A stretch of DNA of 64,000 nucleotides. Source: Marsupella aquatica. Lineage: Eukaryota; Plantae; Marchantiophyta. Each line of letters opens with the position of its first letter. The first letter of the stretch is position 1. The translations under genes were made by a program, and so were the position numbers. Positions 1,566 to 24,608 of this stretch are shown one piece after another. The stretch covers positions 5,427,708 through 5,491,707 of the forward strand of contig OZ316891.1 in assembly GCA_973895155.1 (NCBI GenBank). The letters are read 5' to 3'. The notes beneath the pieces were generated by a model, which worked only from the letters and a program-made list of their open reading frames with translations, was not told the origin of the DNA and did not search any database.

Positions 1566-4157
1566 AAAAAACACCTGTCTAGTAAAGGTATAAGGGGTAC
1601 TCTAACCTCAAGGTAAGGTATCAAACTAGTATATAGGGTCAAAGAGATGTGGACTACTGATCAAGGTAATAAGGCAAGCATGATGCGCTATACAAATTTA
1701 GGTAACTCATAGACAGTGTACTAACATATCCCATCTTGACACTAAAGAGGAGCCTAGTCCTGAATACCAATCTCGTGTTGTGTTCAAGCCAAAACTATGT
1801 TGTCTTCAAGGTAACCTTGTGTCTTCTCTATACAAATACTTGTATGAAACAGTTGTTTGGGGGTAGGTTAAACATTTACCTCACTTAAATATGCCATCAT
1901 CCATAAAAGCAATCTACATTTTCTTTCAATATCCTTGTGAAAGGTATGGATAATAGTTTTACTACTATTATAGTTATGTACATTTATCTTTTATCAAATT
2001 ATATATATGTGCAAGGTATTTAAGCCAAGTACTTAATTTTCAAAGTTGTCACTTGAGCTATCTGGTAACGTGAATACCATCCATTTTAATCTGTAAAAAT
2101 TAGTATGCATGGGTGCAGATGGATGTGTGATGACATGCGTAGGTAGTATGATAGGATGCCCCGCCGAGTCAAGGAATCTTTTGCCCTCATTCTCTCATTC
2201 TTGAATTGGCGCTCATTTTGCTGATCGTTTGTTCACGATGCACCTTATTGTTTGTTCGTGCTTTGACTGACAGTGTAATCTTAGCACTCGCATCTTGTTC
2301 TATTGTTGCTACTTGCATCAATGTCGCTCGCACCGGGTGTGCATTCCTTCGTGCTCTGATTGTCAGGAGTACTCGCCCGTGGATCTTGAGTGTGCCTGTC
2401 TTTATGCTCCGACTGTCAACCGGTTTTACTCGATCTTGAGTGACTGTGCATGTCTTTATGCTTTGATAGTCAGTGCTAATCGTCTGTGGCCATATTAGTC
2501 AGGCTTTTTGGTGTGTGCCCTCATGTACTTGGACCTGTGCGCTCTCACATGTTCGGCTCTGCACAAATGTTATGCTATGCGCGCCGGTGGCAGTCCCCCA
2601 CAACTAGTGATTGACATTCGTGGTACGTGGTATGCTCATTCGTGCTTCCAAATTTTGTGGTTTTCTTGTGAGCGTCCCAAGTTTTTGTAGTGGCACTTGC
2701 TTGTCTTTGCTTGTTCCTCTTGCTAAAAGCTAGCAATGTTTGGCAGTCGCTCGCTTGATGTCTAAGCTTGTTCCTCCCATAATTTTGAAGAAGCGGGATT
2801 CAGCGGCCCTTCACCATTCTGTGTATTCCAGCTTTTCAGGTAGGTTTGGCCAGTCTTTGCTCTAGTTTGGATTAATTTTATCAGTTATTGCTTGAATATC
2901 TTTACATAGTCTCCACGTTATGGTTGCGGCTGCATATAGGTTGTCTTCTTGTCCATTTGTTCATACTAAGTAGTCTGGATCAGAAGGTTGATTGAAACTG
3001 TGTTGAAGCTTCTCTCACTTGGCTCTCTCGTGTCTCATTGTCATGCTCTCTATCTGTCGTCAGTGTGACAATTGACACTCAGTGAGGCAAAGTACATTTG
3101 AAGGCCACGATCAATCAAAACTCTTCTTGGTCTATCTCGGCTCGGGCTTTTCACTTGGCACCAAGGTATTTAATTACATTTTTCTTACCCCCTTTGTCAA
3201 ATCGTTGCTCTGTGGCTGAACAGTCCTTTCCACTACCATCTCCTTCATTGTCTCCACTCTTCCCGTTGAGTATTCTATGTCTTCCTTGCTTTCGCTTGGT
3301 GATCTCCTTCCAGCTCAGTTCTGTGCCATTGGAATGTCCTCCGTGATGCCTCTCACCATCCCTCTCCCAATCTGGAGAATTATCACGCTCACTGATCCTT
3401 TTAAATTTTGATAAATGATTTTGACTCTTATCCGCAGTCTTTTGAATTGGCCCCTCTTCTTCCTCGTCACCTTGCCCTAAAACCCCGCCTCAATCCTGTG
3501 TGCACTCCTTCCTTCATCTCCATTCGCATCCCTACCATCTTCCATGGCGTTTGACTCTCTTTCACCCAAAGCATAAACAGTACACTTCACAAGATGACGT
3601 AGCTAAATTTTAAGGTTAATGAAGGATTGACCTGTTCTGTGAAAATCTGGCAGTGTACTGGATTTGACATCGACCACCAATCATGCTGCATTTTCAAAGA
3701 GTTCAATTATTTTGAAAGAAAGGAGCAACCAGCAGCTGACAAGCAACAAACTTACTAGTACACAGTCATAACAAACCAAATTAAGGTGAGTGATCTTTGC
3801 TTGGCTTAGTCATTGGTTGGAATTTCCAAGAGTGCAAGAGTGATTGGAGAGATAGATGTGAAAGATCCAATTGAATACAATTCTATGAACATATTACAGT
3901 CACATGGAAGAATCTAAATATGTGTATCAATGTCTAATAGTAATTGATAGAAGAATAGGAATTGGAGTCGGCCACAAGTGAACATGCTTAAATGAACGAT
4001 TGAAACCCTAAATTCCACTGCAAAAACCAGTCACAGGTCATTTTTCTCTGAAGCTCAACTCAATAAGAACCCTAAAATCCATTTCAGGGGTCACCAAGAC
4101 GTGGAGAATATCTTCATGATTCTTTAATACATAAAACACCCGTAACCCTATCTGATC

Positions 4158-4623
4158 CACGGACCAATGTTTCGTGACTCCCTACTTCAAGAAACATGAT
4201 TCATAGTCTGTGATCTACATACCCTTGGATCCACGGAGCACAGTTCCGTGAGTGCCTAATCCTGTCAAGCACTGGATGAACGGAACACTGTTCCGTGACT
4301 CCCTGATTCAGGAAACATGGTTCATAGTCTGTGATCTACATACCCTTGGATCCACGGAACACAGTTCCATGAGTGCCTAATCCCATCAAGCACTGGATGA
4401 ACGGAACACTGTTCCGTGACTCCCTGATTCAGGAAACATGGTTCATAGTGTCTGATCTAGACATACACTTGGATCCACGGAACACAGTTTCGTGAGTGCC
4501 TAATCCCATCAGGCACTGGATGAAGGGAACACTATTCCGTATACTTCCCCTAGATATTGTCTAAAATTAATCCAAGAACTCTAAACTAAATAACTAACAT
4601 GTACCACGGAACACCGTTCCGTG
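4158..4623. repeat. Tandem array (~121-bp period) carrying palindrome CACGGAAC-N3-GTTCCGTG
   Basis: Palindrome copies start at about 4158, 4232, 4279, 4353, 4400, 4476, 4523 and 4605 (4605 is perfect). Outlying copies at 5306-5330, ~6849 (degenerate) and 11000-11018. Confidence 0.92.
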
Positions 4624-4753
4624 AATCATCTAAATATATGGAAAACGACATTGCTACTAGGAATGCTCATCAGTAATGTCTGTCAATTGAAACAAATAAG
4701 CTTTTCTCTATAGATCTCCTGAGATAACTTGTTTGTATTGTGATAATTAACAG

Positions 4754-5306
4754 ACGTCAAGGAGCAATGGACAGATGCTCAATACAAAACATTGAATCTT
4801 TCTTACCGGTCTTTGTGAGAATACTTTCCGAACAGGAATTGGTGAAGTCAGCAACTCAGCTATCTGGGAATCTTATTCCCGGACTTCCGGATGACATTGT
4901 TGTAAACATAATATGGCCAATAATAAAAATGTCATTTGACCATGGGGCTCAGTCGGGGAATCTAACACACCCAATCATCCTTAGTTTTTTCTCCTTACGA
5001 GGACTCTCAAGAAAGTGGAATCATCTAGTCAATAATACATACTTGATGGGAATGATTAAAATCACAGAAAGTGATTTAAAAGGCATACACCCATTAGTAA
5101 TTCCAGAAGAACATCTTTCTCAGACAATATCATGTCTCTACTCAAAGTATCCTACATTTCGGTTTTTTGGAACTATGTCCTCTAAGCACATTAACCAATT
5201 CGCAAAAAGTTTTGATCGGTTACATCCAAGACTAAAATGGGACTTTCTAATAGATTGTTGGAATTTAGGATACATTGAAAGTGCACCATGGGATCAGATG
5301 AATTGA
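4754..5306 (+). CDS. F-box-like protein (single exon after a splice acceptor)
   Basis: ORF 4740-5306 contains LIPGLPDDIVVNIIWP...FSLRGLSRKWNHLV, a typical plant F-box signature. Acceptor AATTAACAG lies just upstream of the ATG. Confidence 0.65.
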
Positions 5307-8300
5307 TTCACGGAACACTATTCCGTGAATGGTTCATGAGCTACAGACCTTCTATGCAAACTAGAGAAGATTAGACTTGCAGCATAGGCACAATATCACT
5401 AGAGCTGCTTGATTGGTTTCCTCTCAGAAACAATTTGTAATCGTTACATATTTTGTGAATAAAAAGTTTTGGCCAGAATCTATTTCTCTATCTATGGTTG
5501 CGTCATCGATCTAAGAATTTAATTCTTGAGACACATCATATTGATTTCTACAGATGGAGGACAAAGATGATGGGAAAGGAAAGAGGAAGGTGGAAGAGAG
5601 TACATCAAATCCTCGAGGAAAAATACAGAAGGTGTCTGAATCGGCTGAAGACACACTATTAAGAAAATACAGAGGTCCCAAGATAAAGAAAGTTGTTTGC
5701 GATGAAGCTTTGGTAGTCCATCTAGTGAAATTTGACAGTGTTGATAGCTGGGGAATCGTGCTCTATAATGAAAACATTTACATAGCAATGGACTGTGGCA
5801 CTCTGAGAGTGATATCAGATCATCGGGTCAATGGTTGCTTCTTCAAGAAGAACCTAGGCATGGAAGACTTCCAAGAAGCATTGTGCTTCTTGATGGAAGA
5901 TGTGAATTCCAAAACTATGGTTGGGCTTTGTATGCGAATGAATGACTACACAAAATTTGATCAGAGTCAAATTGATGATCTAGTCAAACTGTCTCCAAGG
6001 TACAGACCTTCACCAGGACAGGAGATGATGCCTTTGACTCCCGAAGATACAACCGGTGAAGACATTGCAGCCTACATAGTTGAAGTGCTTGAGAGCACTG
6101 GATCACCATTTGTGAATTTGTTTTCCATTGGGAGGAAAGGGGAGATAGGACCAGGAAACTTGCCAGAAGAGTTGACTGCAGAACGTGCAACTAAATTGTT
6201 CAATTCCCTTTTGACAGAGTACAAAGATCTCACTCTTTTTGACGGTGAATCAATTACTGTTAATACACTACGATGTAAGATAGGGCCAGACGATTACAAG
6301 TGTAGAGTCTTTGATAGAAAATACTGTGAGTTGTTAAAAGGGTCACTCATGGGTCACTCATCAATTTCTCTGGAAAAGAAGACTGTCTACCTTGTCCCCA
6401 TCCAATGGGATTCTGAATCCGCCAAGGCAAACAATATGTACAATGGAACACCGTTCAAATCAAGACCATCCCGAAGTGTTCTTGATTCCTGTTACTTTTG
6501 GATTGTTGGTGGACAACATACCATCGAAGCTTACAAGATGCTGATGTTAGATCCCAAATTTGATCCAAAGAGGAAGGATCTACTTCAAACTGTCAACGCC
6601 TATCTTTTTTGGACTCCATTCAATATGTCAGGAAAAACACGGATAATGGGGTTGTCTCAAGCTCTGAACAACATGAATCGGACATCGATGCCAGAAAGCC
6701 AGTTCCTTCTCATGGCAAAGCAAGTCCGCTCAATTTGGATTTTTGCTGGTCGACCGGATCCAGCTTTGTCAAAGTCAGCCAAGTCAACGTATAAGGTAAG
6801 CACAATGTAATTCATAGATTTTTGGGTGCCTTATGCAAGTAGTTTTTATATGAAACAGTGTTCCCTAGCTGGTCCATGTCTTCTCAAAAGTAAATTCACC
6901 TTTTTGTGAACTGTGTTTGCAGGCATTTCTGAAACCTGCAAGGATCGCTTACCCGACAGCTGTTATAGTGAATGGCCAGATGCGATTTGTAGAAATGTCA
7001 CCTTTCCTATTTGAAATGTCAGACGAGACATTTCAAAAGTGGATGGAAGTGCAGCGGATGTCGGAGGAAGGAGAACTCATTCACTATAATCGACTTCGAC
7101 AGGCAGATGCAAAACCTTATCAGGAGCGCACAACTTGGCATCTGAAGAGAAGGTTTTTTACACACCTTCAAGGGCTTGAAGACCGGGATTTGTCCAAAAT
7201 AGCCACTTATCTGATTGAGGGAAGGAACATCTCTCTCTATCCTAAGAAGAGAAATGATAAGTCATACGATCCAGTGGCGGAAAAGGAGTGGAGATCATTT
7301 GAGCAATTAATACTGTCGAGGCAAGAAGTACAAGAGGGTTTTTCAGGTGATATGCCTGAAGCAATTTACAGAGAAAACTAGGGTGAACAATTTCAAGAAG
7401 TTGAACAAGGTGCAGCTCAAGCGTAAGTTCAAAGAGGTGAAGGAGTTCTTCCATCTTGATTCTGAGAGGATTGCTTTGCTGCGCGAGGCTATGGGAGAGA
7501 AAGTTCTGAAGATGGGAATTAATCAAAATTGCAAGTGGACTCACTTGATTGAAAAACTTCCTGCGCCTTTTGAGAACCTTGTTGAGTCTATTCAAATGAT
7601 GTTTGACCAGGCTGGAAACTTGAGAGTTGTCAAGACAAATGACCTCTTCCGTCTTAGATCAATAAGTGGATTTGGGAGCATAACGTTTTTTAGAAAATTG
7701 GCCGAGGGTTACAAAAACAAAGCCAACTTTTTCTTCTTTGACCTGACAATGTCCCCAGCGTTTGGTCCATACAACCGAGAGTTTTATGACGGATTTTTCA
7801 AAGCAACAGCGGTCGTCGGTTGTCCAAAACACAAGATTGTGTTGATCATGAATCCAATGGAGGTAACGGACATGACTTCGGCAATGTGTCGCATCCCGGG
7901 GTACATCACAGTGCAGGCTCAATACATGCGGAAGAAAACAGGAGGAGATCGGGATGGAACACAACTTTTGGAAAATGATGGCAAAGTAGTCCAGTATGTC
8001 TCGTATAACTTTTTCAATCAGGCATTTGATGCTTCAAAAGATCAACCAGACAGGCAGGAGCCCATTCAGGCTTGCCTAAACGACAACATCAGGAATTTTG
8101 AAGAAGCGGTAACGGAAGAGAGTCTTGTCAAAGAGAAGAGCACTGAATTTTATCAGTACCTAGTGAAACTTCTCATGAAGCATCAAGATAGAGCAATCTG
8201 TTTTGGTGAAGGCCGCAGGTTAACTCAATGTCTTATGGTAAGAATGATCTTTCCTCAAGTTTAGTTTGCAGTAAAAGTTTCCCTATTGCTTTAGACTGAA

Positions 8301-8640
8301 GATGGTTTGAGACTAATTTCACATTGCCAATTTCAGGAGTTCGAAGTCAATGTCAGAAGCTATTGCTCAATAGAAAGTCATGAAGCAACCACAAATTACT
8401 TCAACGTACACTTTGTTTCCAAGATTTGAGGAAGTGCCTCAAAAATGTCCTGACAGAGAATCTTTTGAAAACCTCCTAAAGAGAAAGGTCGAGAAAAAGA
8501 GAAGCATTTATCATGTCCGAGATGATTTGACTGACACATTAAAAGAAAACTATCGACTCAATGATGATGAGATCTATCGAGTCATTCGAGAGTATGGACT
8601 TCAGGAACAAAGTGATCCTATTGCAGACTCCTTACCTTAT

Positions 8641-10648
8641 AACACGATTTCGGACCGACCGAGAAGTGTGTCAGAGTTCTCGTTTAGCCCGATCCCATTT
8701 TTTTCTAAGGCAATTCAATGACCGATAAAACTGGCAAAAACTCTTCGAAATGCCACTTTCCTCCATTGCATCGCCGCGGGAATGCAGGGGGCGATACGTG
8801 CATCGGGTTTTACATTCCGTCAATGAAAAAGTCCGAACTGCGAGTAACTTGGTCCGAACCGCGTAATCCAGGAACGACCACGCACTAACCCAGGTAAAGG
8901 GGAAACTTAACCATGGTTAAGGGGAAATTAACCATGGTTTAGAGCGTCTCCTATATAATTAAAGAGGAGCGGGCTGCCCATAAAACGTTTGCTTTTGCTA
9001 GAGCAAATATCTCCTGACTGAGAGCGAATACCAAACTCCCATCGAGTCTTACATTCCTCCCAAGCGATTCGACTCTTTCTACCGAAAACCCGATAAATTT
9101 ATCGGAACAGCCATTCCTGTTCAAGTTCTCCATGTAAGACTAACTAGTCATTTAGTGTAAAATGTCCAGATCCGAGCGGACTGCGATAAATTTATCGTAT
9201 TCTGCATTCCTCTGTTGCAATCATTTGATCCAGTGTTTAGAGAGGTGTTGCCTTCATTCCGATAAATTTATCGGAGTCTTCATTCCTTTCATGGAAAGAG
9301 GAGTAATTGAGAATCCGATAAATTTATCGGAGTTGTCATTTTTGTGAAAGATTGAATTTAGGGCTTAGGTGTCTGAGGAAGTCATATTTTCAATTCGAAT
9401 GCGGAGTGCGATAAACTTATCGCATCCTCCTATGCGAAAAACTTATTGGCGGTGGCCCTTTTATAGTGTCTGTTGAGGGGTTGGCCCACGTGTCCACTTT
9501 TGATTGTTTGTCACCCTAAACGACAAAATAGCAAAAAAGGTAATATTTCTTGGATTTCCAATTTCATTCTCACATGTGCATCGTGGCAAAATTATATAGT
9601 TTTGAAATTGAAGCGATAAATTTATCTGATGTTGGTATTGCAAAAGTGGTTCCTTCATATGGAAGTTGCAATTTGAAATTGAAGCGATAAATTTATCTGA
9701 TGTTGGTATTGCAAAAGTGGTTTCTTCATATGGAAGTTGCAATTTGAAATTGAAGCGATAAATGTATCTAATGTTGGTATTGCAAAAGTGGTTCCTTCAT
9801 ATGGAAGTTGCAATTTTGAAATTGAAGCGATAAATTTATCTGATGTTGGTATTGCAAAAGTGGTTTCTTCATATGGAAGTTGCAATTTGAAATTGAAGCG
9901 ATAAATGTATCTAATGTTGGTATTGCAAAAGTGGTTCCTTCATATGGAAGTTGCAATTTTGAAATTGAAGTGATAAATTTATCTGATGTTGGTATTGCGA
10001 AGAGTTTTCTTCATATGGATAGGAATTTTGAAATTTAACCGATGAACCGAAGGATCTTAGTATTGTCGATTAGTATTTTTGTCGCCCGTAGTTTTCGCGA
10101 TAATTTTATCGGACTGCGCATTGCTGTTGAAAGAATGGCATGTTGACTATGGTCACTTGCGGAGGTAACTGGTCAATTGCGGAGGTAACTGCAAGGTAAG
10201 TTTGACAAACCGTGCAGTAATTCTTATCGATTGTGATGTAAAATATTTTTGGTAAATATCCAAAAACTGAGAAAACTGAGATTGGGTCGGAGCTTTCATG
10301 GCTCAAATCCGGAGTCCGATACAGTTATCGCACTTGGCTCGAAACGTGGATATGGATTTATAGATAAGACCTTTCATATATCTTCGGAGAGCGTGAATAT
10401 GAGGTTGAGAAGAAAGTTTTTCGGATCTAATTGTTCCTTGATAATATGAATGTTTGTTAGCATGAATTTCATTGGTTTTGATCATTATTAAATTTGTTGT
10501 TTCAATCCGAACTCCGATACGAATTACATTATTTCCCCAAAAATGTGTTTTTGATGAAAAAAACTGCCGATTTCGCGAGATTCAGCGGAAAATGAAAATA
10601 CACTTCTCGTTTAGAGGAAATAGTTCTCGTTCGGTCCGAAATCATGTT
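8641..10648. mobile_element. Non-autonomous TIR DNA transposon, ~2.0 kb, 25-bp TIRs, 4-bp TTAT target-site duplication
   Basis: Left TIR AACACGATTTCGGACCGACCGAGAA (8641-8665) and right TIR TTCTCGTTCGGTCCGAAATCATGTT (10624-10648), 2 mismatches. TTAT at 8637-8640 and 10649-10652. Removing the element restores the frame ...DSLPY-ELPTIIPKGPLR. Confidence 0.85.
9090..10030. repeat. Palindrome CCGATAAATTTATCGG copies plus a ~6 x 71-72-bp tandem minisatellite
   Basis: Perfect 16-bp palindromes at 9090, 9259 and 9315; variants at 9183, 9408, 10097 and 10316. Tandem units begin near 9601, 9672, 9743, 9815, 9886 and 9958, each containing GCGATAAATTTATCTG-like sequence. Confidence 0.93.
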
Positions 10649-11659
10649 TTATGAGCTTCCTACAATTATCCCAAAAGGACCTTTAAGAGGTAACATTGAG
10701 ACAACTAAGGACTAAATAGTTGTTGAGTAATGAACTAGGATAATTGCAGAAAACCATTCTCTGAATTTCAGTTTATCTAGTTTATTCAGTTTAAGATGGG
10801 TGCTGAAAGATTGTTCCATCTTAGATTTTTCATTCAAATGTGTTGGGTTTAGTCTGTTAATGTTAGTGTAGTATGGAGCGTTTTAGATTTCTCAGGATCT
10901 GCAATGAAATCCAAGCACTTGTCAGATTGGTTATTGATTATTCAAATTGATATCAAATACAGTTATTGAGTATATTTGAGTAAATCTCTTGGCATCTATG
11001 GTGGAACACTGTTCCGTGAACTGTACATATATCATGTATAGAAATTTGTTCATTTCCATCTCCATTAACTTGTCTAGTATATTAAAGTTTTCCTTTGATT
11101 GCACTAGGTGACCATCGGGTCGAGATCATTGGGGAATATCATAAGAGGTCTAAGAGAGGTATAACTGAAGAGGATCAATTGAGAGTGAGTGGAAAATTTT
11201 CTGCTGATAAGGAAATCGAGAAGAGGTCCAACCTGAGTGAGGATGAGCCCAAGAGGAAAGAGTGGCGTTCTAAAGTTTTCGGAGAAAAAAAAGGAGAGAT
11301 CACATTTGAATGCCAAGATGATACCCCCTCTAAAGACAATTCAGACAGTCGAGAAACTATTCCTGAGAGTGAAGGTGAAGATGTAGGTTCTTTGGAGGAA
11401 ATGGCAAGTGAAATAGGGGATGACAGTGAGAATGAAGATGTTCCACAATTGGGCCAAGAATTGCAAGGTGAAGGTTTTCAGGGACCGTGGGATGAGGATA
11501 GCAACAAAGATGATGATGAAGAACAAATGAGCTATCCGATTGAGGGAAATTCAAAAAAATGTATCCATATTCCTATTCAAAGTCTTGGGGTGGGACCTCG
11601 ACCGTATTGTAGATATTGCAAAAGAGAGGCGATAAGGAATACACATGACGCACAAAAAA

Positions 11660-12150
11660 GGGAGCAAGAAGTTCAAAAGGCCGAAGAGAAACAAAAGGCC
11701 AAAGTTGAAGAGGAAGCAAGGAAGCTCAAGGAGGAGATGGTTCATAAGGAAAAACAACACAAGGAGAGGGAGGAGAGGTATAAGGAAGAGAAAGAGAGGG
11801 AGGAGAGGGAAGCGACGGATAAGGAGGAGAAAGAGGAGAAGGATAGGAAAGAGAGGGAGGAGAGGGAGCAAAAAGATAAACACGAGAAGGAGGAGAAGGA
11901 TAGGGAAGAGAGCGAGGAGAGGGAGCGGAAAGATAAGCCAGAGGAGGAGGAGAAGTACAGGAAAGAGACGGATAGGAAAGAGACGGATAGGAAAGAGACG
12001 GAGGAGAACGATACGGTTGATGCGGAGAGGACAAAGAAGTATAAGGTTGACAAAGAGACCGACAGAAGAAAAAGGGGTCAAGAAAAGGAGGAGAGCAAAA
12101 AGCAGAGAAACATTAACGAGAAGGACAACGAGCTAAGAGACAAGAAGAAA
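11660..12150 (+). repeat. Purine-rich low-complexity coding repeat (E/K/R/D-rich linker)
   Basis: GAGGAGAAGGATAGG and AAAGAGACGGATAGG repeats translate as KEEKEEKDRKERE...KETDRKETDR. Confidence 0.85.
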
Positions 12151-12696
12151 GGCATTCAACTCACCAAAATTGTGGATGAGAATCCCAAAATTGATTCTGC
12201 AACAGACGAGCAATATGCAGACACTTTGCGAGAACTTCGACCCCCATTTGGTGGACGGAAGTTGAGAAAAGGAAAATTATCTCCTGGCACAGAGTCTGAG
12301 TCTGACATGAAAAGGCTTTCCTTCAATTGCAAGTCACAAGATATGAAAGATGATTCATTCCTTGCAGCAGGTTTGATGAGCGGGGTCGTACCATGCAGCG
12401 AATCGCCAAACATTCATGATAGACGGAACAGTGTTTTGTCAATTGACCATCCAATGTTCATACAACCAAATGGATAGGATCCGCCAGAAGAGTCAACATC
12501 TCAAAGAGGAAAAGAGAGACTTTCACAATCTGACCTGATGGAGATAAACTCAACATCGGAAACATCCGGATCAAACATTTCAAAGGTACAACACATGCAA
12601 TTTTATGTAAGCTTCTACAATATTAGATACATGTTCACATGGGGTGTAGCTCTTGGGTACATAATCAATTTCTGAAAGAAAATTGTATCCTTGCAG

Positions 12697-13398
12697 ATAA
12701 TTTCTCTTCAAATTGATAAAACTAACGAGATTGCAGTAGACACATGCCTCAGTCGAAGCCTGGATCAGAATGAGGTTTTGACAACAATCGAAGATTTCCA
12801 TATTACTCGTAAAGTAATGAGATGTCTCTGCCCACGAGAATGGTTGAAGTCTGATGTTATTAACTCTTATATGATTTTATTGAAGGAGAGAGAAACATTG
12901 ATGTTGTGCAAATCATTTAGATGTCACTTTTTCAATACCTGGTTCTATACAAAACTTGCTGGGGTAGGTTATTCTTACAACTCCAAAATCTCCCGATGGT
13001 CAACCAAATTGGGATACAGTATATTTGACTGTGACAAATTACTTGTTCCAATTCATTGTGGGTTTCATTGGACTCTCGCTGTAATTGACCTCAAGAGTAA
13101 AACTTTAACCTATCTTGATTCCTACCCTAATGAAGACCCCAAAGTGCTCCTAAACTTATCACGATACATTGCAGATGAGGCTGATGCCCAACAATTAGAA
13201 CCAGTCAATGCTTGCAATTGGATACATTTGTATCCAAAAGATATTCCCAAACAGAATGATTCTCACAATTGTGGGATGTTTTTGATAATGTTCGCAGATT
13301 GTGAAAGTTTAGGAAAACCATTTAGGTTGAACTGGAGTGATAGACCCGAAAATAGACGAAAAGTGGTTCTCCAACTGTTGGAGAAAAAGATTATGTAG
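12697..13398 (+). CDS. Ulp1/SENP-type SUMO protease (peptidase C48) domain exon
   Basis: WLKSDVINSYM, FFNTWFYTKL, LLVPIHCGFHWTLAVID, YLDS and PKQNDSHNCGMF give an intact His-Asp-Cys triad plus oxyanion Gln. Phase-0 acceptor TTGCAG at 12696. Confidence 0.92.
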   Translation: MISLQIDKTNEIAVDTCLSRSLDQNEVLTTIEDFHITRKVMRCLCPREWLKSDVINSYMILLKERETLMLCKSFRCHFFNTWFYTKLAGVGYSYNSKISRWSTKLGYSIFDCDKLLVPIHCGFHWTLAVIDLKSKTLTYLDSYPNEDPKVLLNLSRYIADEADAQQLEPVNACNWIHLYPKDIPKQNDSHNCGMFLIMFADCESLGKPFRLNWSDRPENRRKVVLQLLEKKIM

Positions 13399-13614
13399 TT
13401 TCATTCTTAGTATAGAAAGAATGAAAGATATAATTGAGATTATCTAGCTGGACAATTGTTTAAACATACTCCTTGTATATTCAAAAAATATAAATATATA
13501 ACTCAAAAAGCCTTGTTTTAAATTCTTATCAATTGTTAAGTATTATTTTGATTTCAGTTTATCAAATTGCATATATCAGTGTTTATTGATTTATTTTTTA
13601 TTTGCAATCAACAG

Positions 13615-14319
13615 GTGGTGAATTTGTCAAAGGCGAAGAGATTGCTTGTTATTGACATGGATGGCTTTCTTCTTTACTATTCAAAATCATTTCATACTGT
13701 GAACAGCTCGAAGGGATTCAACATTGGAAATAAAACAATACTCCTCAGGCCATACTTGCATGAGTTTATGAAATTTTGTTTCAAGTTTTTTGACGTGGGA
13801 GTTTGGTCGTGCTTGCCAGTAAGGGACCTTGTGCAACACTTGGGTCTCTTGCTCAACAAAGAAGAAAGAGTTTCTCTCAAATTTTTCTTTGGCAAAGAGA
13901 AATTGCAGTTGATTGGTCGAGATCAAGACACTAATGACCTTTATGCCAAAATCATAAACTATGTATTTATCCGAATGCCACACAAGATAAGGGAAAACAT
14001 TACTCTTTTGGAGGATTCACTCCTTAAGACCATATGCAATCCCTTTTTCTCATCTTTATACCCACCTACATATATGGGCAATGAAGAAGACACTTTCTTG
14101 AAAGATAGACTTATTCCTTTCCTTTCAAAACTCTACAAGTCGAATTCTTCCTCATATGAATATATAGAGAGTAACTACCCAGAATGGTCGCAAGAATCAG
14201 TGGCTTTAGACTGGCAAAAAAATAGGGACGTGTGGAAATGTAGATGGATTAAAGAGAAAGGTGACATAGAACATATGAAAAGGTTTAGCGAATATGAATT
14301 CAAGTTTGGTGGAATCTAA
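13615..14319 (+). CDS. FCP1/NIF-like HAD phosphatase domain exon
   Basis: KRLLVIDMDGFLL, LLRPYLHEFMKFCFKFFDVGVWS and ITLLEDS motifs. Phase-0 acceptor CAACAG at 13614; no suitable start codon of its own before the domain. Confidence 0.8.
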   Translation: MVNLSKAKRLLVIDMDGFLLYYSKSFHTVNSSKGFNIGNKTILLRPYLHEFMKFCFKFFDVGVWSCLPVRDLVQHLGLLLNKEERVSLKFFFGKEKLQLIGRDQDTNDLYAKIINYVFIRMPHKIRENITLLEDSLLKTICNPFFSSLYPPTYMGNEEDTFLKDRLIPFLSKLYKSNSSSYEYIESNYPEWSQESVALDWQKNRDVWKCRWIKEKGDIEHMKRFSEYEFKFGGI

Positions 14320-15959
14320 TATTTAGTTAGATTCTATGGCTCAGCATGCTAGTTTAATAGATGTAGACTTTGAGAGATGAGAACTAAGGGTAGTATAAAT
14401 AATATTTTAGTCTCATATTATTTTGAGTGAATAATTATACAAGATTATTCTTACTTACATTATAATAATTGGTTGTTTTTTTATTCAGTTTTATGATGAA
14501 TAAAAATATATTGATTTTCTTCATAGGTTTTATCATTATTGTGTTCCACATTTCAAGTTTGAATGTCTCTCCTTTGGTTTCGGAGTCCCAAAAGTGAGAG
14601 TTCAATTTACTATTGAACTTAATTGGTAACTTTTGTGATAATTAGAAACTTTAGGCAACTTATTGCTAATGTCATGTATTTTTTGTAATATATTAATAAT
14701 ATTAATTAATTAATAAATATCAACAATTTACATTTGGGAATTTCTGGAAATGAAAAGTCACACTATTACTCAAATAGGTGTTGTGTGGATAAAAGTCTAG
14801 AAATGAGTAAAATATATGATCTAGAACCTAATGTGTAAATCTTAATCTAGGTTTGGCTTAAAGGTATTGAATTAGATGCAGTTGAGCTACTACTTCTAAG
14901 ATAAATAAATAAAATCACTAACCTGCTCCGCAATATATCTCTACCCACCCTTGTACAAGCTAAATGGGTACCTAGGATGCCAGCATTGTAACTCTTAGCA
15001 CCACAGTGCTCACCAGTGCCCTTACTAAACCTTGCATTCAACCATGCGGACCTAAACAAGGCACTCGGACAGAGGAGAGTCAGTGACCGTACCAATCACT
15101 GTCTAAATGACAATGAACCCAAAAATGGATTGTGGGAGGTCTATACTCAGTTTGAGAGGCAAAAAGCCCACACATTACCCAGCACACGAGTGGACACCAG
15201 ATCGGGCACAGGTGGATCAGGCACACACCCAGCACACAAGTAGACATCGGATAGGGTGTCAGCCAATCACTCACGAGTGATAGGTGAGTTGCGAGCGCAC
15301 ACTGCTGAAAGCTTGGAAGTTTAAAATTGGTAGGTGAGTTGCGAGTGGTCGTGAGTGGTCACACCATCACAGATGACTCATGAGCACATGCAACGAGGAG
15401 GATCTCCATCATTGGCGCGCATTGATGCTTCCGTATCCTCTCTGATCCTTGCCTCCTTAGACTCCTTGCTCGTAGGGGGTATAGGAAGGCAGGCCTTGCG
15501 CTTGAGGCCTCATTTCCTTGCCTCCCTCTTGCCTCCTCTCTTTCCTCCTCTTTGGGCTCCTCTCTCGTCTCCTCACTCCTTGCCTCCCTCTTGCCTCGCT
15601 CTTGGGCTTTTGTTTCCGCCTCGCTCTAAGGCTTTTATTTCCACCTTGCTCCCTTCCCTTTTGGGTCGCTCCGTCGATCATTGTTTGCCTGTTAGTGCCC
15701 TCTTGCAGCCTGTGGCATTATCCATTGCTGCCACGTGTCATCTTAAATCTCACTCGCCCCTTACAATGTCTACTTCCTCCAGTTCTGAAGCTTCCACCAC
15801 CTCCGCCAGTTCTAAAGAGTCATTGAACTTCAATTATAACTCTCTGTATGAATATGACCCTGAAGACCCGGATGTCCAAAAATTGGTTAACAATGTGTTG
15901 GAGGCGTCAAAGAAAGCCCAGTTAACTTTTCCACGTAAGGCACCACCTGCTTCAACTTC

Positions 15960-16635
15960 TTGCCTCGCCCTAAGGGCGAGGCAACTTTACTTTAATTTGG
16001 ATTTCAAACTTCTTATTAGGAAAATTTCTATATTCCTTTGCAGTCGCCTCGCCCCAAGGTCGAGGCGACGTCTACTTTATTCTAGATTTTTTGTTGCTCC
16101 AAAGGCGTATTAGACCTTGTATCTTACTTTAATAAAGGATCTTTAGCTATATTCTATTTTTTGCCTCGCTCTTGGGGCGAGGCGATGTCATCTGCATTCC
16201 TAAAATGTAGTTTGCATTCCTAGAAGTTGCCTCACCCTTGGGGCGAGGCGATGTTATCTGCATTCCTAAATGTTGTCTGCATTCCCAGAAGTTGCCTCTC
16301 CCTTGGGGCGAGGTGATGTCCTCTACATTCCTAAATGTTGTCTGCTTTCCCAGAAGTTGCCTCGCCCTTGGGGCGAGGCGATGTCCTCTGCATGCATTCC
16401 TAAATGTTGTCTACTTTCCCAGAAGTTGCCTCGCCCTTGGGGCGAGGCGATGTTGTCTGCATTCCTAAATGTTGTTTGCTTTCCCAGAAGTTGCCTCGCC
16501 CTTGGGGCGAGGCGATGTCTTCTGCATTCCTAAATAATGTTTGATTGCTTGGATGAGGTGGCAGGGCTAATTGCACTAGGAGCAAAGAAGCTTTTGCAAT
16601 CTTCTATTTGTCGCCTCGCCCCAAGGGCGAGGCAC
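15960..16635. repeat. Intronic tandem array (~65-bp period) carrying palindrome TTGCCTCGCCC-N3-GGGCGAGGCAA
   Basis: Copies at about 15960 (perfect), 16043, 16161, 16227, 16292, 16357, 16426, 16491 and 16610, all inside intron 15935-16706. Confidence 0.93.
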
Positions 16636-18299
16636 CTTGAAAGTTTTCCACATGTCAATGTTAAAAATATGATGTTGACCATTTTGTTTTCAATGTTTCT
16701 TACCAGGAAAAAATCTTGAGAAGCCGGAGTTAAATATTATGGACGAGGAAATTAAGGACTTGTTTTCCCTGACCATGATACTCCAGGATTTAGATGGGCA
16801 CTAGAAGTTGGGGTGTCGGCGGAAGGCAGTCTCTTGATTTGTTTCAAGGGCCTCACAAGTCAATTGAATGACCGCAAGACAATTGTTACTCTAGGTCCAG
16901 TCGTCCTTGTGAACACAGACAACAACCACAATCCAACGATTATTGTTGAGTCCAATGAGAAATCTCAGTGGATGAGACTTCTGGTGCCAATAAAACTCTA
17001 CTCGACTTTACTGAATGTTGAGTGGATGGCTCGATTGGAGATAAGCGTAGCTGATATGGGATTCTTCCCAGATGGAGTAACAATTGATCAGATGTTTGAG
17101 AAGACGCGTTCTCAAATAAGTGGAGTTGACCTAGTGTTTGGATTTCTCTACGTAAAGAAGCACATGCATAACAATGCGGACAATGTGGACCCTTCGTCTA
17201 CTTGGATAGTTCAAAGGATGATTGAGAAGGCACATTTTTCATACGAGCAAGCAATCGACAAGAGTTTCATTTTTTGTCTAGAGTTTCAAGAGGCCGCGTG
17301 CCGGATGTGGATTTCAGAGATGAAGAAAAAAGAAGCAAAGCATAAGGCAAAGGAGAGAAAGAAGACAGTGGAAAGAAGCGCGCAATCAAAGACAGAGAAG
17401 AAATGAAAGCTTCGAGAGCCGGTTGTTCAACAAGAGAAACAATCTGGGAGTTCACGCCGTAAGAAGATGGCTAAAAAAATGAAGATGATGAGGGCCCCCA
17501 AAAAAAGCAGACAAAGAAGGCAAAGGTTGCGAAATCAAAACCAATGTCATCGTCGACTTCAAACTTTGTCTTGCATCCAGAGGATGATATGTGTCCGACA
17601 GAAGGACCCAAAGAAGATGATGTGCTCAAAGGCCAAGAGGTTTTGCGTAATATTGAGCAGTATTATACTTGTGGCATCCGCGAAGTTTTTGATATTCCTA
17701 TAAAAAGTATTATTCCGCCATCGGCCGTTTTTGTATATCGAATGTTCAATCTTTCGCATGCAATGGAGATATCAAAGTCTATGATGAAAAACCCTGGACA
17801 AGAACCACAAGTTGCTGATTTGATTCCGTATCGCGAGAGCACTAAACAGTTGCTTCATTATGACAACACACCTCAGGATAGGAAAGAGTTTTTGATTGGT
17901 GTGAAAAAGCATGAGATCCAATTCCTTGCCATCAGTGGCCAGCATTCTGCAAGAGCTGCCCAATGGATCCAAGGGTGGGCCAAGACTGACGCCAAGCTGA
18001 CAGATCTTGCCAACAAACTAAAGTATAGGAAAGCAAGGATCCTATCTGACCTCACTCCAAAGACAATTTTGCTTGAGCATTCAAGTTTATCGAATGCTGT
18101 CAATGATACTATGCAATTTAAGTCTTGTTTTTTAGAGACTATTGTTCATGCACGAAGGCAGTTTGAGGAGTGCGGGAAACCGTCGCGTCCAGGGATTGGG
18201 ACCAATCAAAATACAGATAGGAAAAACTATCAGGTACATGTTGGAGCAACGCAAACTATTCTTGATCCGCTTTGTTTAAAGATTGTCAGTGGTAGAGGT

Positions 18300-18484
18300 T
18301 TGCCTTGCCCCAAGGGCGAGGCTGCCTTGTCTTGTTTTCCTTGGTTAGAAGATTAAAGCAAATTTTTGCCTCGCCCTGAGGGCGAGGCAACCTAGACTAG
18401 TCTCTCTAAGAATAATTCCCTAGTTCCGTTTCAGTCAATTGCGGTTAGATGTAGAGGTTCACCACGCCCTTGGGGCAAGGCGGC
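18300..18484. repeat. Three further GCCTCGCCC-N3-GGGCGAGGC palindromes in intron 18234-18545
   Basis: Copies at 18300, 18366 (perfect 11-bp arms) and ~18460 (degenerate). Confidence 0.85.
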
Positions 18485-21172
18485 TTAGCCTGTTTCAAAC
18501 ATAGGTTGTACCCTGAAACTAATGTCAAGTCCATTGGATATGCAGGATTGGTTTGCCCTGGCAAAGGTTACAATGGGGAAGTCAAGCCTAAAGAGCATTT
18601 ATTGGTTACTTTTTGCCAAAGATGAGCTCTTTGAATTATGGCAGAACGTGTGTGCAAAATGGTTGAGTGGGAAGCTCCAAGACGGGGCTGGTGGGTATGG
18701 AGGGCCAAGACCCCCAAAATTGATCATTCCCGGTACCTTTCGATGCTTTGAAGGAGAGATTAGTAGCAAACAGTTAATTGAGATCTTGAAGGACGTTGAA
18801 GAGGAGTCAGCATGCCTTGCTGAAGAAGGATATCACCAACAAATCAGAGCTTGTCGCAATGGGAGACTTGGCCCTTACAATCAAGATAATGTCCAAATTG
18901 AGAACAGTCATTATTGGCTATTTTGTGGAAAAGTATCGTGAGAAGTTTCCTGTTGGCACATCTTGGGAGTCTCTGGTGATATTGTTGCCTTCCTTGAAAT
19001 CTGAGCTTGAGATGACAAAATTGAGGAGAGCAGCGGGTGAGGTTTACCTCAACAATTCATTGAAGAAGAATGTGGTCAAGGAGAGTTTCCCACAAAGTCT
19101 GATGGTCAGACTAGATGGGTTGTATTGTAAAGAATTTGGTGGGATTGGTCGTTCTCGCACGGAGCCTTTCTTGACATTTTTTAGTGATAATTTGATGAAG
19201 ACGACTGTCCCGGAGCTGCTACAAGAGCCTTCACCTTTGTGTCCTCTTGCCATTGTTGACTTCAGTAGGCTCCGACAACATGTTTGAACCGATGCTATAA
19301 TTATTGCATTACTGCAATACATTGTGGATCTTCCAAGAAATCCAACAATTGTTGTTGTCATGACTGTGCATTCGCTGCAAACATTTTGAGTGCCCTTAGG
19401 AAATTGCAACATGAAAAGGGAATGGACATCCACGTTGACTATGGGAGCTATCGACGGAGTGATACACCAGTTCCAGAGGGCTTACTTTTCAATTGTGGTA
19501 TGGAGGAGATAATCTTTGCAAGAATCACCACTAAGGAGAAATTTGATTGGAAGCAAGTGTTCAGGCCTGGATTTAATTGCCAATTTTCTTACAATTCGGC
19601 GATCGACCCTGATTTCCAAGTGGAAGACAAGACGGAGAAGCAAGATAAGAATAAGAGTAAGACAAGTAAGGAGACAGAGACTGAGTCAACTTCGGCATTT
19701 CACATTGGAGATTTCTTACGAAAGGCTCCCATGTTTGAGATGGTGGGAAGTAGAGGTGGCTTTGTGAATATTCACGCTAAGCCAAAATGTATGCTGCAGA
19801 GTATTATTGAATTTTTTTTGGCTGAAGGGGAGACTATACTTGACTTTTTCTCGGGAGGACAGGTTATGAAGGTGTCATTGTTGTGTTTCAGAGAATGCTT
19901 TGCGTATTCAGACACTGAGGATGAATATGATTTCACTAGGCATATGGAAGGGTTCTCTGCGAGAAAGTTCCTTCCATAATGAGTGACTGGATGGGCGGTT
20001 CCAAATTTGGTAGAGCCCGCGATGGGGTTTCCGAGCATGTTGGCGCCAAAGAAGGCGTAGACCAGGGCGAAGATGAGATTGAGGAAGGAGAAATGGGTCA
20101 CGACACAGACGATAGGGTCACCCAAAATTTGGATGAATGTGGAACACAAGTGGTAGGTATTCCTTACTTTGGTGTGGGGTTGGCCGATGTTGTGGGTCGA
20201 CCTGAGAGCGACCCACCAAGAAATCCCTTTGCCGGTGTAGAGAATTGGATGCACCAGTCGGACCCAGATCTTACATCGTCCACATCGGATGCACATTGGA
20301 AGGCAACCGCAGATGATTTAGGCAATATTGACGCAGTAGAATTGGGAGAAATGTTAGACATTGCGCTTGCAAAGGAGGATGATCATCAAGTACCTGAGAC
20401 CGCTGCAAATGAAGAAGAGAAGGCAGGTGCTTCAAATCCTCCCCTGTCTCCTCTATATTGCTCATCAGAGACTAAATTGGTTTTTACAAGTGCTTCTACA
20501 AGAAGCCCCGTAGTATTATCATTTTCACAAAATTCTGGATCCGAGATCGGCAAGACTGGATATATGAAAACAGTCCGTCCTGCAACTCATTTTATATGGA
20601 GAAATGGACCAAAGGTTGGAATGATAGAATCACTAGACGATGCTCCAAAGATAATGGCAAAATCAGATTACAAAAAACTGAACTTGAGGCTGAGCCCAAT
20701 TTTTGCACCCCCATCCTTTGAAGAGCAACTTCCCAGTGGTATCAATTCCGAGATACATAGTGTTCTAGGTGATCAAACAATAGATGAATTTGGGCATTTT
20801 AGCATTGGAAATTATTAGCCCTTTCTTTGGTTCTTGGTATTTTAATGACAATCTAAGCTTTATCTTTGTAATAATATACTTTTTTACAGACCAAAGTTTC
20901 TTCGTAGAATCTCCTTCCTCAAAGGATTTCGTTGGCATTCCCTCGGAAAGCGTTGCTGTGGAGGAAGGGTTTGACCCAGGTATACTTTGGATCTAAAAAA
21001 TGGCAAGTGAATGTAATTAATGTTTTTCTAAGAGGGTCGCCCCAGGGTCGTTCCTCTCTACTTCAAATGCTATAACAAAGTTTGTTTGATTTCAAATTTT
21101 GAGAGTTTTCCTCCGTAGTAATTGTTTAAACTTTGAGTCGCATTGACTAAGGGCTTATTTTAATGTTTCCAG

Positions 21173-22212
21173 AATTCACTCCAATACTACACTCTCCGAT
21201 CCAGCAAAAGCTCTTGGTTCTTGACCTTAACAAGATTTGTTGGGATTGCATTAAGACCAGAAGCTCAGGACCATGGCGAAATCAGACAAGTTTATGTGGT
21301 GTGCACTGGGGGAGACGTGGAGGGTTTAATTTCATGTATGTGGAGCGCCCATACCTCCACAAATTTCTATATGCAGCTTTCATGGTTTTTGACGTCGCAA
21401 TTTGGACTTGTGCAAGGAGGCCAAAACCAATGGACTTAATGGAGTTGATTTTCACTGAGGAGGAGCGTCAGAAGTTCAAGTTTGTCTTTACTCAAGAAGA
21501 TACCTTTGATAGTTGCGTCCAAAGGCCAGATATAACAGATGGGAAGGCCAATTTACTTCTGAAGAATTTGCAAACCATTTGGGACCGTTTTCCAGAAAAA
21601 TATGATGCTTCTAATACAGTTCTTATTGATGATTCTCCATTGAAGGCATTTTTGAATTATGATGTGAATGGATTGTTTCCAAATCCATTTACTCACACAA
21701 CTTCAAATGACACTTTTTTGCCCGAGATATTATGGCCGTATCTTTGCAAATTGAGAAAGGCTTACTGCGTTCAACATTATATCATTGTCAACAATCCAAA
21801 GTGGTCTGTTTTCAATTTATTAACAAGCAAGGAGGATCATGTTGCCATCTATGCTCGTTTGGAACAGAAGTGGGGAGATTGTCGTTGTATCCATAAGGAG
21901 TTTGGAACCATCTTGGATGTGACTCCTGAAGAGATTCCTTGGGATGGAAAGAACGAGGTGCAGCATTACCCACCACTGGAGACGTGGACCACAGATGAGA
22001 TCGAAGAAACTGCAAACGCAATACTTGGAGACAACTATTCTGGTCTTCATAGACAAAATAGAAGACATTTTATTTGGAAAGTTCTCAAAACTAGGGATCT
22101 CACCAATAAGTTTAAGAACCACCATGCGAGAGATACTTGCAACCGTGACATCCGCTATGATAAATCAGGAAGCAGACTTTCTTGTTCAAATGAGTTTTGT
22201 CTTGATCATTAG
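21173..22212 (+). CDS. FCP1/NIF-like HAD phosphatase domain (terminal exon of gene B)
   Basis: KLLVLDLNK, VERPYLHKFLYAAFMVFDVAIWT, LLKNLQTIW and NTVLIDDSPLKA motifs; phase-1 acceptor TTTCCAG at 21172. Confidence 0.85.
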
Positions 22213-23016
22213 GAGATAGGGTTGCTCTAGTGCCTACCCTGAATTGTACATTCATATTATGTCAAAGGATATATTTTGAACATGTAGGATAAAGTAAATA
22301 ATTAGGATATGCTTAGTGTGAGGCTCTCTCACTGGACTGGACAATTTAATAATTATATAGTGGGTCAATCTCATTTTGACCTTTGATTTATGACCATATA
22401 TATTTTTTAATTTATAGATGGTCTGAGTGGTATTGGTCTCTGATTTTTGGACTAAATCAAATTTACTCTAATTTTTAAATTAATTAGAATATATGATTTA
22501 AGTTATTATTAAACATTTGGGTGAAAAAAACAAAATTTTGGGCGTTCAAAAGTGTATATTTGGGCTGAAAAAAATTAGCTTTTGGGAATGCTTTAATAGA
22601 AATTTGGCCTGAAAAAAAATAACTTTAGGGTTCATCTTATGGACTTTTAAAAGTACAGTTTTAATGAATATAGTGATCGAAGTGAGAGATGCAATCCTAG
22701 CCATTCATATGTGGGAACTGGTCACACTTTACATGAACTTTGGGCACAATCCAGCAAAGGCATTTATTACCAACCTAGTCATCTGTCACTGGGTCCCTTG
22801 TGGGTCAACTTTTTTGCTGATGTGTGCAAGCTTTTTTGCCAAAAACTTCTTCTCTTGAGGGGGTGTAAACACTTGGAGCAAATTGTGGATTCTTTTCAGG
22901 GAATTGCATCCATTCATTCTAGACCTGACACAATGCATTATTACTTCTAGCCATGACCCATTTGTGCTTAGGCATTTTAATTTTTGTGTAAGGAAATGAC
23001 CATCAGCTTTCCTTTG

Positions 23017-23502: not shown

Positions 23503-24260
23503 ATATACGCATTAGCTTATCTCGAGCATTTTTCCGATCCTCGAAACACGTCGATCCTGGCATTCAACAGTGCCAGGTATATACTGTAGAATCCCGCCGC
23601 CGCCTGTTCTTCTATGTTTCTGATTTGGCAATATAGCCTTTCGGCCACAACAGTTCTACTGTAAGTTTTTTCTGTAAGAGTAGCAGTGTCTGTTGACTTT
23701 GTTTACTCTATTTTTCGTTTCTGAGCTTTTCGGCCGCAATAGTTCGACTGTTTTGCCTGTAAGACCAGTGTATGTCTATTTTATTTACTTCAATTTTCCA
23801 TTTCTGAGTTTTTCGGCCACAACTCTTCTATTGCTTTAATTGTCTGTAATAGCAGTGTCTGTTGTTTACTCCACTTTTCCGTTTCTGATTGAAACTAACT
23901 TGACCTTCGCCGGCCATCCACGTTGTTGGACTTGTTCCCTCCCCGAAAGACAAATACGATTAAAATTTGTGTAGTCTTGCATGCATGCTGGATTTCTCAT
24001 TCTGCCGGGCCCTTCACTCTCCATTCTTCCCTGACTTTTCCTTTGGTTTCAATTGAAATGGTTTATTTCTTTGTTTAATTTGGACTGTACTTTTTCCCTT
24101 TGTTTTCAATTCGATTGTGTTTGTTCCTTATCTTTACGTTGCTGTTCTTCTGTGCTATACTTCTATGTCGTTCATTCGTTCATGTATTCATCCTTGTCCT
24201 TAATTTGCTTGTTGAATCGTTTTGTTAATTTATGTCCACTTGGTCGTGTGTTACATGCAG

Positions 24261-24608
24261 GACAGACAGCAGGAAATCAGAAAGATCATGGAACCGACTT
24301 CGAATCGGAAGGAAGTTACTCCACGAAATACAGTAAGGAGAGCCATGGACTTGGTTTCAACGATTGAGGAACCCATTAATCCTACTGAAATGGACCGGTT
24401 TTTGGCAATGGAGGAACTCATTCCCGGCGTCCCTAACTCCATCACAGTCACACATATTGTGCCGAATCTGCCATTAAGGGACCTCCACACGCTCGCCTCA
24501 GTCAGTCGCAGCTGGAGGCGGTTGATAAACAGTCCATTGATCTGGAATGACAAAGTCCGCGCTCTCAGACAATGTCTAGCTCTACTCTCAATATGTTTTC
24601 GAGAGTGA
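24261..24608 (+). CDS. Short F-box-like protein exon
   Basis: ELIPGVPNSITVTHIVPNLPLRDLHTLASVSRSWRRLINS, preceded by acceptor ACATGCAG. Confidence 0.7.
   Translation, partial: DRQQEIRKIMEPTSNRKEVTPRNTVRRAMDLVSTIEEPINPTEMDRFLAMEELIPGVPNSITVTHIVPNLPLRDLHTLASVSRSWRRLINSPLIWNDKVRALRQCLALLSICFRE

Follow-up and report, generated by a model that had tools for sequence, protein, structure and literature searches.

ParB-like accessory genes have been described on algal transposons. Sola1-1_Ec32 of Ectocarpus encodes a 1,104-amino acid (aa) protein with a ParB-like and an N4/N6 DNA methyltransferase domain, which was considered a possible novel class and was suggested to bind the element that carries it and to modify it; the element ends in AACCG..CGGTT and has a 4-bp target-site duplication (TSD) (PMC12477816). 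In red algae, the ParB-like PAG3 of Plavaka elements is adjacent to tandem arrays of inverted repeats, self-binding was proposed, and a PAG3/PAG2 cassette moves between transposon families (bioRxiv 10.1101/2025.02.11.637652). Here we describe a 64,000-nt stretch of Marsupella aquatica (GCA_973895155.1, contig OZ316891.1, positions 5,427,708-5,491,707 of the forward strand; hereafter the window) with two diverged genes, A and B, each encoding a ParB/Srx-like domain and each accompanied by its own palindrome, and a small element, C, nested in gene A. The best reading of this locus, to which we assign a probability of roughly 55%, is that of a transposon accessory protein which binds the palindrome of its own element.

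The comparison with Sola1-1_Ec32 is one of descriptions, not of sequences. Shared features are a single protein of more than 1,000 aa which combines ParB-like and amino-methyltransferase domains on a DNA transposon, and, in element C, AAC..GTT ends with a 4-bp TSD. The Marsupella locus differs in belonging to a land plant, in its extra PH-like, NIF and Ulp1 modules, in an altered methyltransferase motif IV and in that no transposase was found; the main text of PMC12477816 does not mention palindromes. As with Plavaka PAG3, a ParB-like accessory gene adjoins inverted-repeat arrays (palindromes A and B). However, the Plavaka ParB is fused to a 2-oxoglutarate (2OG) oxygenase, with the methylase on a separate SET-domain gene, whereas here ParB-like and methyltransferase-like domains are fused and the B arrays are intronic.

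Outside the algae, VANC of the Arabidopsis VANDAL elements offers a parallel, its binding and demethylation being proven (PMC5735166). There too a family-specific motif, amplified by tandem repeats, lies in introns and upstream DNA, and the proposed logic is the same; VANC motifs, in contrast, are non-palindromic words of 8-9 nt, and binding is proven there and predicted here. ParB/parS, Noc, KorB and BisD (PMC12409273; PDB 7bnk, 6sdk, 8qa8) have the ParB/Srx fold and palindromic sites of similar size in common with our locus, which differs in lacking the arginines of both GxxR (here GQHS) and ENxxR (here SNxxN), in having no ParA partner and in being a spliced eukaryotic gene. The likeness to the beta-class amino-methyltransferases CcrM, M.RsrI, M.PvuII and rotifer N4CMT extends to fold, motif order and motif I, whereas motif IV lacks PPY and the domain is fused to a ParB-like one. 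Fusions of ParB, a helix-turn-helix (HTH) and a methyltransferase have also been mentioned in chlorophytes and chytrids (PMC4738411).

Element B thus has the attributes of the PAG3/Sola1-1_Ec32 kind, namely a ParB-like gene and a modifying-enzyme domain on a repeated element, and adjacent inverted-repeat arrays are present for both A and B. The earlier note on this DNA had put the locus forward as a candidate new system. Because ParB-like accessory genes beside inverted-repeat arrays, as well as ParB-methyltransferase fusions, are known on algal transposons, with the same hypothesis attached to them, it is not one; it is a land-plant variant of the kind put forward earlier for PAG3 of Plavaka and for Sola1-1 of Ectocarpus. 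The literature searched, which did not extend to subscription papers or preprint supplements, yielded no description of such an architecture from land plants.

Three units, each with its own palindrome

Contigs from five public sequencing runs (X1-X5) were aligned to the region, depth being a sum over contigs and not a copy number. In X1, depth was 37-79 in the gene A bins (3500-8147 and 10804-14787), 1,514-1,715 in the bins covering the element C zone (8812-10803) and 431-1,302 in those covering the element B zone (14788-22755). The pattern in X2 and X4 was the same, with larger steps, and in X5 depth was 16-117 over B and below 10 over most of A. At the sharp ends of element B the rise was about 10-fold or more in four runs. 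These sharp steps, together with loose contig ends, divide the region into three units: gene A, which is low-copy; element C, a high-copy insert of 2,008 bp within it; and the adjoining element B of 7.9 kb, likewise high-copy. Their extents, and those of the palindromes, are as follows (no strand is assigned).

8641-10648: element C, a 2,008-bp non-coding element with terminal inverted repeats (TIRs), high copy, TTAT target duplication, AAC..GTT ends
14783-22677: element B, about 7.9 kb, high copy, both ends marked by a step in depth and by loose contig ends
4158-4623: palindrome A array; seven copies have at most 3 mismatches and an eighth has 4, most of them lying within a tandem repeat of 121 bp
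5309-5327: palindrome A, single copy directly after the stop of a small open reading frame (ORF)
11000-11018: palindrome A, single copy inside the intron at 10690-11107
15962-16633: palindrome B in intron 1 of gene B, 9 copies, 6 of them within a 65-bp tandem repeat
18302-18481: palindrome B in intron 2 of gene B, 3 copies
9091-10330: palindrome C, 10 copies, some of which belong to a tandem repeat of 71 bp

Palindromes were counted over the whole window with up to three mismatches allowed, and the counts for A and B were compared with 100 shuffles. Palindrome B, GCCTCGCCC-N3-GGGCGAGGC, has 12 matches against a chance mean of 0.01, a number reached in none of the 100 shuffles; all are intronic, nine in the intron at 15935-16706 and three in that at 18234-18545. 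Palindrome A, CACGGAAC-N3-GTTCCGTG, is matched nine times, always at gene A; 0.09 matches are expected by chance, and none of the 100 shuffles yields nine. Seven of the nine lie upstream, one between genes at 5309 and one, with three mismatches, in an intron at 11000. Palindrome C, CGATAA-N2-TTATCG, which belongs to the nested 2-kb element and had escaped the earlier note, has ten matches, all within 9091-10330, against a chance mean of 0.05. Palindromes A and B never occur at each other's locus. The claim that each is found only at its own locus is therefore upheld for the window, with counts far above chance, and the palindromes are real and restricted there to the non-coding DNA of their own locus.

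Two of the sites proposed earlier need qualification. For palindrome A, the upstream array and the intron at 10690-11107 (one copy) stand. The site in the intron at 6796-6922 matches only a 5+5 core. An exon (6445) and three unrelated positions in the window match equally well, so that this site does not exceed chance expectation. For palindrome B both named introns are borne out, and the 11-bp arms, as originally given, are perfect in only two of the 12 copies.

The palindromes of the three neighbouring elements, 14-21 bp long, are thus all different, and copies of a palindrome recur in unrelated flanks. Divergence in arms and flanks, respectively, was 0.095 and 0.586 for B, 0.233 and 0.632 for A, and 0.042 and 0.624 for C; as the arms were picked by match, only the unrelated flanks are informative in these figures. 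At one arm base that is mismatched in intron 2 of gene B, the palindrome is perfect in 482 of 482 (X1), 4249 of 4652 (X2) and 3167 of 3583 (X4) of the contig depth. Contig alignments also indicate that array length differs among element copies.

A ParB/Srx-like and methyltransferase-like protein family

The exons of the two genes, and the small ORF upstream of gene A, are placed as follows.

4767-5306, plus strand: small ORF whose start weakly resembles an F-box (Pfam E no better than 0.14), bracketed by palindrome A
5554-6795, plus strand: gene A exon with a ParB/Srx-like domain (6211-6786)
6923-8237, plus strand: gene A exon with one frameshift, encoding a helical region homologous to B, followed by what may be a decayed methyltransferase-like domain
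8337-10689, plus strand: gene A exon split by element C (parts 8337-8640 and 10653-10689); one frameshift
11108-12585, plus strand: gene A low-complexity charged exon; one in-frame stop
12697-13398, plus strand: Ulp1/C48 small ubiquitin-like modifier (SUMO)-protease exon, Pfam E 1.4e-31, phase-0 acceptor, with H, D, Q and C motifs all present
13615-14319, plus strand: NIF/FCP1-like phosphatase exon of A, Pfam E 8e-11, motif DMDGF, phase-0 acceptor; putative alternative last exon
15766-15934, plus strand: putative gene B exon 1
16707-18233, plus strand: gene B exon 2, with a PH-like domain, a lysine-rich linker and a ParB/Srx-like domain; two frameshifts, one stop
18546-20818, plus strand: gene B exon 3, with a helical region (candidate HTH) and a beta-class methyltransferase fold with altered motif IV; three frameshifts, one internal stop
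20890-22212, plus strand: mini exon (20890-20979) and NIF-like exon (21173-22212), both putatively joined to exon 3 of gene B, Pfam E 6e-16, DLN replacing DxD

The ParB-like region of gene B has 76 representatives at E <=0.001, the named homologs being solely from the leafy liverwort Calypogeia fissa. For fold tests we used the AlphaFold model of P0001 (predicted local distance difference test score, pLDDT, 80), which is 76% identical to gene B over this region. It superimposes on ParB 7bnk with Z 9.2 and a root-mean-square deviation (rmsd) of 2.2 over 94 aligned residues, and in an unbiased fold search of 48,161 chains the top seven were all members of the ParB/Srx superfamily (best Z 7.7). 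The top Foldseek rows were Noc and ParB, none below E 0.001, and a viral library also returned ParB-like rows. On the evidence of these models, the N-terminal fold in the family of B is ParB/Srx. In gene A the corresponding domain is recognised by a family hidden Markov model (HMM; independent E-value, iE, 2.5e-15) and by tblastn with P0092 (E 2e-11). The ParB/Srx fold that had been proposed from two short motifs is thus borne out, by structure on close-homolog models for B and by profile for A; the motifs themselves are present, IVGGQHT at 6502-6522 in gene A and AISGQHS at 17928-17948 in gene B. Sequence-based searches were less productive: a search of PDB sequences with the ParB alignment gave low-complexity matches only, Pfam gave only weak DndB matches in 2 of 59 ParB members, and the Atlas rows DUF3723 (0.93, 31% of members) and ParB_N (0.92, 35%) serve as leads only. 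The domain which precedes ParB is weakly PH-like (Z up to 5.1).

The nucleotide pocket is another matter. In ParB proteins the cytidine triphosphate (CTP) pocket is marked by the motifs GxxR and ENxxR (PMC12409273). The GxxR arginine is present in 0 of 59 family rows, the column holding Ser in 55, Thr in three and Leu in one (gene B reads GQHS). The place of ENxxR, a correspondence derived from the aligned range in the 7bnk comparison, reads SNxxN; its Asn is kept in 57 of 59 rows, and 39 of the 59 have a further Asn at the fourth position, where Arg is outside the four commonest residues. His113, Asn163 and Arg141 are nearly invariant. Judging from the models, the family is ParB-like in fold and probably in site recognition, and by these motifs it falls outside the CTP-clamp group. 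Helices are predicted after the ParB domain, divided between two models; in gene A this region gives a weak match to a family helical HMM (iE 0.001). An intron after the ParB domain is common to the family, a trace of it being seen in 33 of 68 motif-bearing proteins.

For the methyltransferase-like domain we used P0093, an exon-3 homolog of gene B (AlphaFold pLDDT 75). Its model matches CcrM with Z 18.1 and rmsd 3.4 over 215 aligned residues, the family profile matches M.RsrI with E 1.4e-7, and motif IV precedes motif I, which is the beta-class order; together these show a beta-class amino-methyltransferase fold in the family of B. The S-adenosylmethionine (SAM)-binding motif I, DFFSGG, is invariant in 9 of 9 rows. 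The canonical catalytic motif IV of amino-methyltransferases is (D/N/S)PP(Y/F/W). In the family its Asp is kept in 8 of 8 homologs and PPY is replaced by FSR, FGR, FTR, FAR, LAR or LIA; PPY is also missing from gene B and from the outside locus L001 described below. By these motifs the B family lies outside the canonical amino-methyltransferases despite its fold and motif I. With active-site motifs replaced family-wide, both the CTP-clamp and the methyl-writing parts of the analogy are weakened.

The earlier note had placed an amino-methyltransferase block in both genes, which is borne out for the family of B and is only a possibility in gene A, where profiles do no better than shuffles: there was no HMM match, and hhalign scored 14.85 against a shuffle mean of 14.1. 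The motif-I window of gene A nevertheless ranks 2 of 6082 and lies at the expected place, with the motif decayed. A phmmer search with this putative domain returned nothing relevant, and PHROGs and NCBIfam gave no usable match for gene A. After the methyltransferase, exon 3 of gene B encodes an acidic linker and a conserved small C-terminal domain (20384-20815), for which no family match and no usable Atlas match were found.

Modules of the post-translational modification type are attached: Pfam identifies Ulp1 and NIF exons in A and a NIF exon in B. Since both the Ulp1 and the NIF exon of A have phase-0 acceptors, their sequence suggests that they are alternative last exons. The two NIF domains are 31% identical. 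NIF/FCP1 phosphatases have the motif DxDx(T/V), from which DMDGF (A) and DLN (B) both deviate.

Outside the window, relatives were sought in metagenome and viral contigs. One locus with a methyltransferase alignment, L001, was found on a metagenome contig of 1.8 kb; none was found in viral contigs, nor in metagenome contigs with the ParB alignment.

98-207 of L001: intron following the ParB region at the same position; motif IV reads DFAR

Elements, broken genes and surrounding DNA

All four introns named in the earlier note have GT..AG ends, and the giant genes that it described are both broken. Gene A has two frameshifts and one stop in addition to the element C insert, and gene B five frameshifts and two internal stops; the summed exons come to about 1,320 codons for gene B and 1,690 for gene A. 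Five of the seven gene B breaks are absent from the main X1 contigs, among the rows listed. In X2 the shares lacking these breaks are lower and range, depending on the site, from 53 of 21,598 to 72,959 of 76,394 of the depth. Judged by sequence, A and B are distant members of one family, each a broken copy, and not a tandem pair: with 23% identity over 156 aa and different depth, a recent tandem duplication is ruled out. In a quick tree, which kept 61 of 102 sequences, gene A sits on a branch of length 3.7 and its placement is unsure. Breaks and repeat context rule out intact giant host genes, and a viral insertion is ruled out by the lack of hallmark genes and by introns of spliceosomal type. 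X1, X2 and X4 also contain a diverged second copy of the charged and Ulp1 region of gene A (12173-13286), and X1 a second diverged B-like family (depth about 309) that matches B (16761-22075) only in patches.

The mobile-element context that had been assumed for both genes is supported, as a mobile or repeated one, for B, with its high copy number and sharp ends; A is low-copy and its carrier is putative. A repeated element end lies just beyond gene A:

14706-14782: repeated element end (..GGTGTT); right flanks vary in other copies, with loose ends behind 14782 in X1 and X3

This is possibly the right end of the carrier of gene A, and no matching left end was found in the window. Such repeated ends abut B on both sides (14706-14782; 22680 onward), with varied flanks in other copies, and elements seem to pile up end to end around B.

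End searches and ORF domain scans found no TIR, long terminal repeat or transposase in element B. Its sequence is best fitted by Helitron-like ends on the minus strand. Helitrons of the HLE1 type have a 5' TC after A, a 3' CTRR before T and a 3' hairpin (PMC11417382). On the minus strand element B begins with A and then TC at 22677, and CTAG stands beside the left end in other B copies, among the loose ends listed, and is absent from the present copy. No clear 3' hairpin was seen at the ends and no RepHel was found, and with the hairpin missing element B is no more than a candidate Helitron. A CACTA/EnSpm element was considered on account of TAGTG at 22671-22675 and rejected, as the left end is at 14783 and not at the CACTA at 14761, and there is neither a TIR nor a matching TSD.

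Element C has imperfect TIRs of 35 nt, and one contig each in X2 and X4 joins across it, skipping 8634-10650. Its observed/expected CpG ratio is 1.2, compared with about 0.5 in A and B. Since it has AAC..GTT ends, a TIR and a 4-bp TSD, the ends and TSD as in Sola1-1_Ec32, element C is by sequence a Sola1-like non-autonomous element. No transposase was detected among 100 small and 16 main ORFs of the window, whose edge limits the reach of this search, and Rfam gave no match in positions 1-26000.

Further features were noted around the three units. An F-box ORF (24216-24608, Pfam E 1.3e-7) is weakly similar to the small ORF upstream of gene A (E 3e-4), and is followed by a reverse transcriptase relic on the minus strand (24734-25164; RVT_2, E 7e-4 and 5e-3). 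An 83-bp direct repeat of 95% identity (876-958 and 1492-1572) is surrounded by GGGGTA/TACCCC motifs, which flank other B copies as well, and a small cluster of TAGTGTG/CACACTA inverted repeats lies at 53358-53430. By eye, the flanking host genes are an ABCB-type transporter (25627-33629, minus strand) and two xyloglucan endotransglucosylase-like (XTH) genes (39909-40340 and 49163-51485).

Proposed self-recognition and its alternatives

A self-binding accessory protein would work as follows. The intact ParB- and methyltransferase-like protein is predicted to bind, as a dimer, the palindrome in the non-coding DNA of its own element, and so would mark the copies of that element family. The helices after the ParB domain, cut by the conserved intron, may form the DNA-reading HTH. 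The reader of each family would have diverged together with its palindrome, which local tandem duplication would amplify. The ParB domain probably does not act as a standard CTP clamp, and the methyltransferase domain is probably non-catalytic or a repurposed DNA- or SAM-binding module. The deSUMOylase and C-terminal domain (CTD)-phosphatase-like exons may be effectors brought to the element, easing host silencing or aiding spread, and non-coding relatives such as element C may keep the family palindrome and be served in trans. This is supported by the palindrome excess, the folds, the ends of element B, the family of 76, the shared intron and the precedents of PAG3, Sola1-1_Ec32 and VANC. A broader proposal is doubtful on present evidence. 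In it, early land-plant transposons would run a modular address system derived from a repurposed bacterial ParB: a ParB-HTH reader that needs no CTP and is joined to a pseudo-methyltransferase would recognise a palindrome private to its family, the choice of last exon would decide whether a SUMO protease or an RNA polymerase II (Pol II) CTD-phosphatase-like effector is delivered, and the three neighbouring elements would each bear a different address.

Several observations weigh against self-recognition. Six of the 12 B copies and most A copies sit within tandem repeats, and in some contigs of X2 and X5 the B arrays are incomplete (joints 18239-18324 and 16181-16604). Element C shows, with its array but no gene, that a palindrome need not adjoin a ParB gene, and L001, within its 1.8 kb, has no array in the matching intron. 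The methyltransferase and PH-like domains of gene A were undetected by profiles. The candidate HTH owes its assignment to its position and to resemblance, in a region of low pLDDT, and no Pfam HTH_ParB match was found in the ParB members. Finally, two protein-palindrome pairs are too few to show co-variation.

The array without a gene in element C, the gene without an array in view at L001 and the failure to find a transposase in the window would all fit palindromes that are cis sites for some other trans-acting protein, such as the transposase or Rep of an autonomous partner, with the ParB-methyltransferase gene as mere cargo. We think this unlikely, however: the B palindromes lie deep in introns, at least 1.2 kb from the left end and at least 4 kb from the right end, and are not subterminal, and a gene-plus-array pairing is likewise reported in the Plavaka preprint.

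The full beta-class fold, the invariant DFFSGG and the motif-IV Asp in 8 of 8 homologs could be taken as signs of an active DNA amino-methyltransferase whose catalytic site has been rebuilt and which, guided by ParB/HTH, writes N4-methylcytosine (4mC) or N6-methyladenine (6mA) at or near the palindromes; 4mC enzymes reportedly exist in plants and rotifers. The replacement of PPY after that Asp in all eight homologs, gene B and L001, and the decayed motif I of gene A, make this improbable. The least probable alternative is that slippage and tandem duplication produced the palindromes as neutral by-products, which spread along with the element and have no reader. Many copies do belong to tandem arrays (65, 71 and 121 bp), and array length varies among element copies; against this, single copies also occur in unrelated flanks, three neighbouring elements have three different palindromes of 14-21 bp, and VANC target motifs are amplified by tandem repeats and yet functional (PMC5735166).

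Self-recognition by a transposon accessory protein is proven for VANC only and merely proposed for the algal ParB-like genes. With two diverged readers, three distinct palindromes and a high-copy B family whose other members are free of most of the breaks, the Marsupella locus offers a comparison of cognate and non-cognate pairs. If binding is specific, the ParB-like accessory class would reach land plants and would provide a natural family of sequence-specific chromatin-targeting proteins; and if the loss of the CTP and methyl-transfer motifs reflects a new chemistry or a purely structural role, the published idea of self-methylation would be refined.

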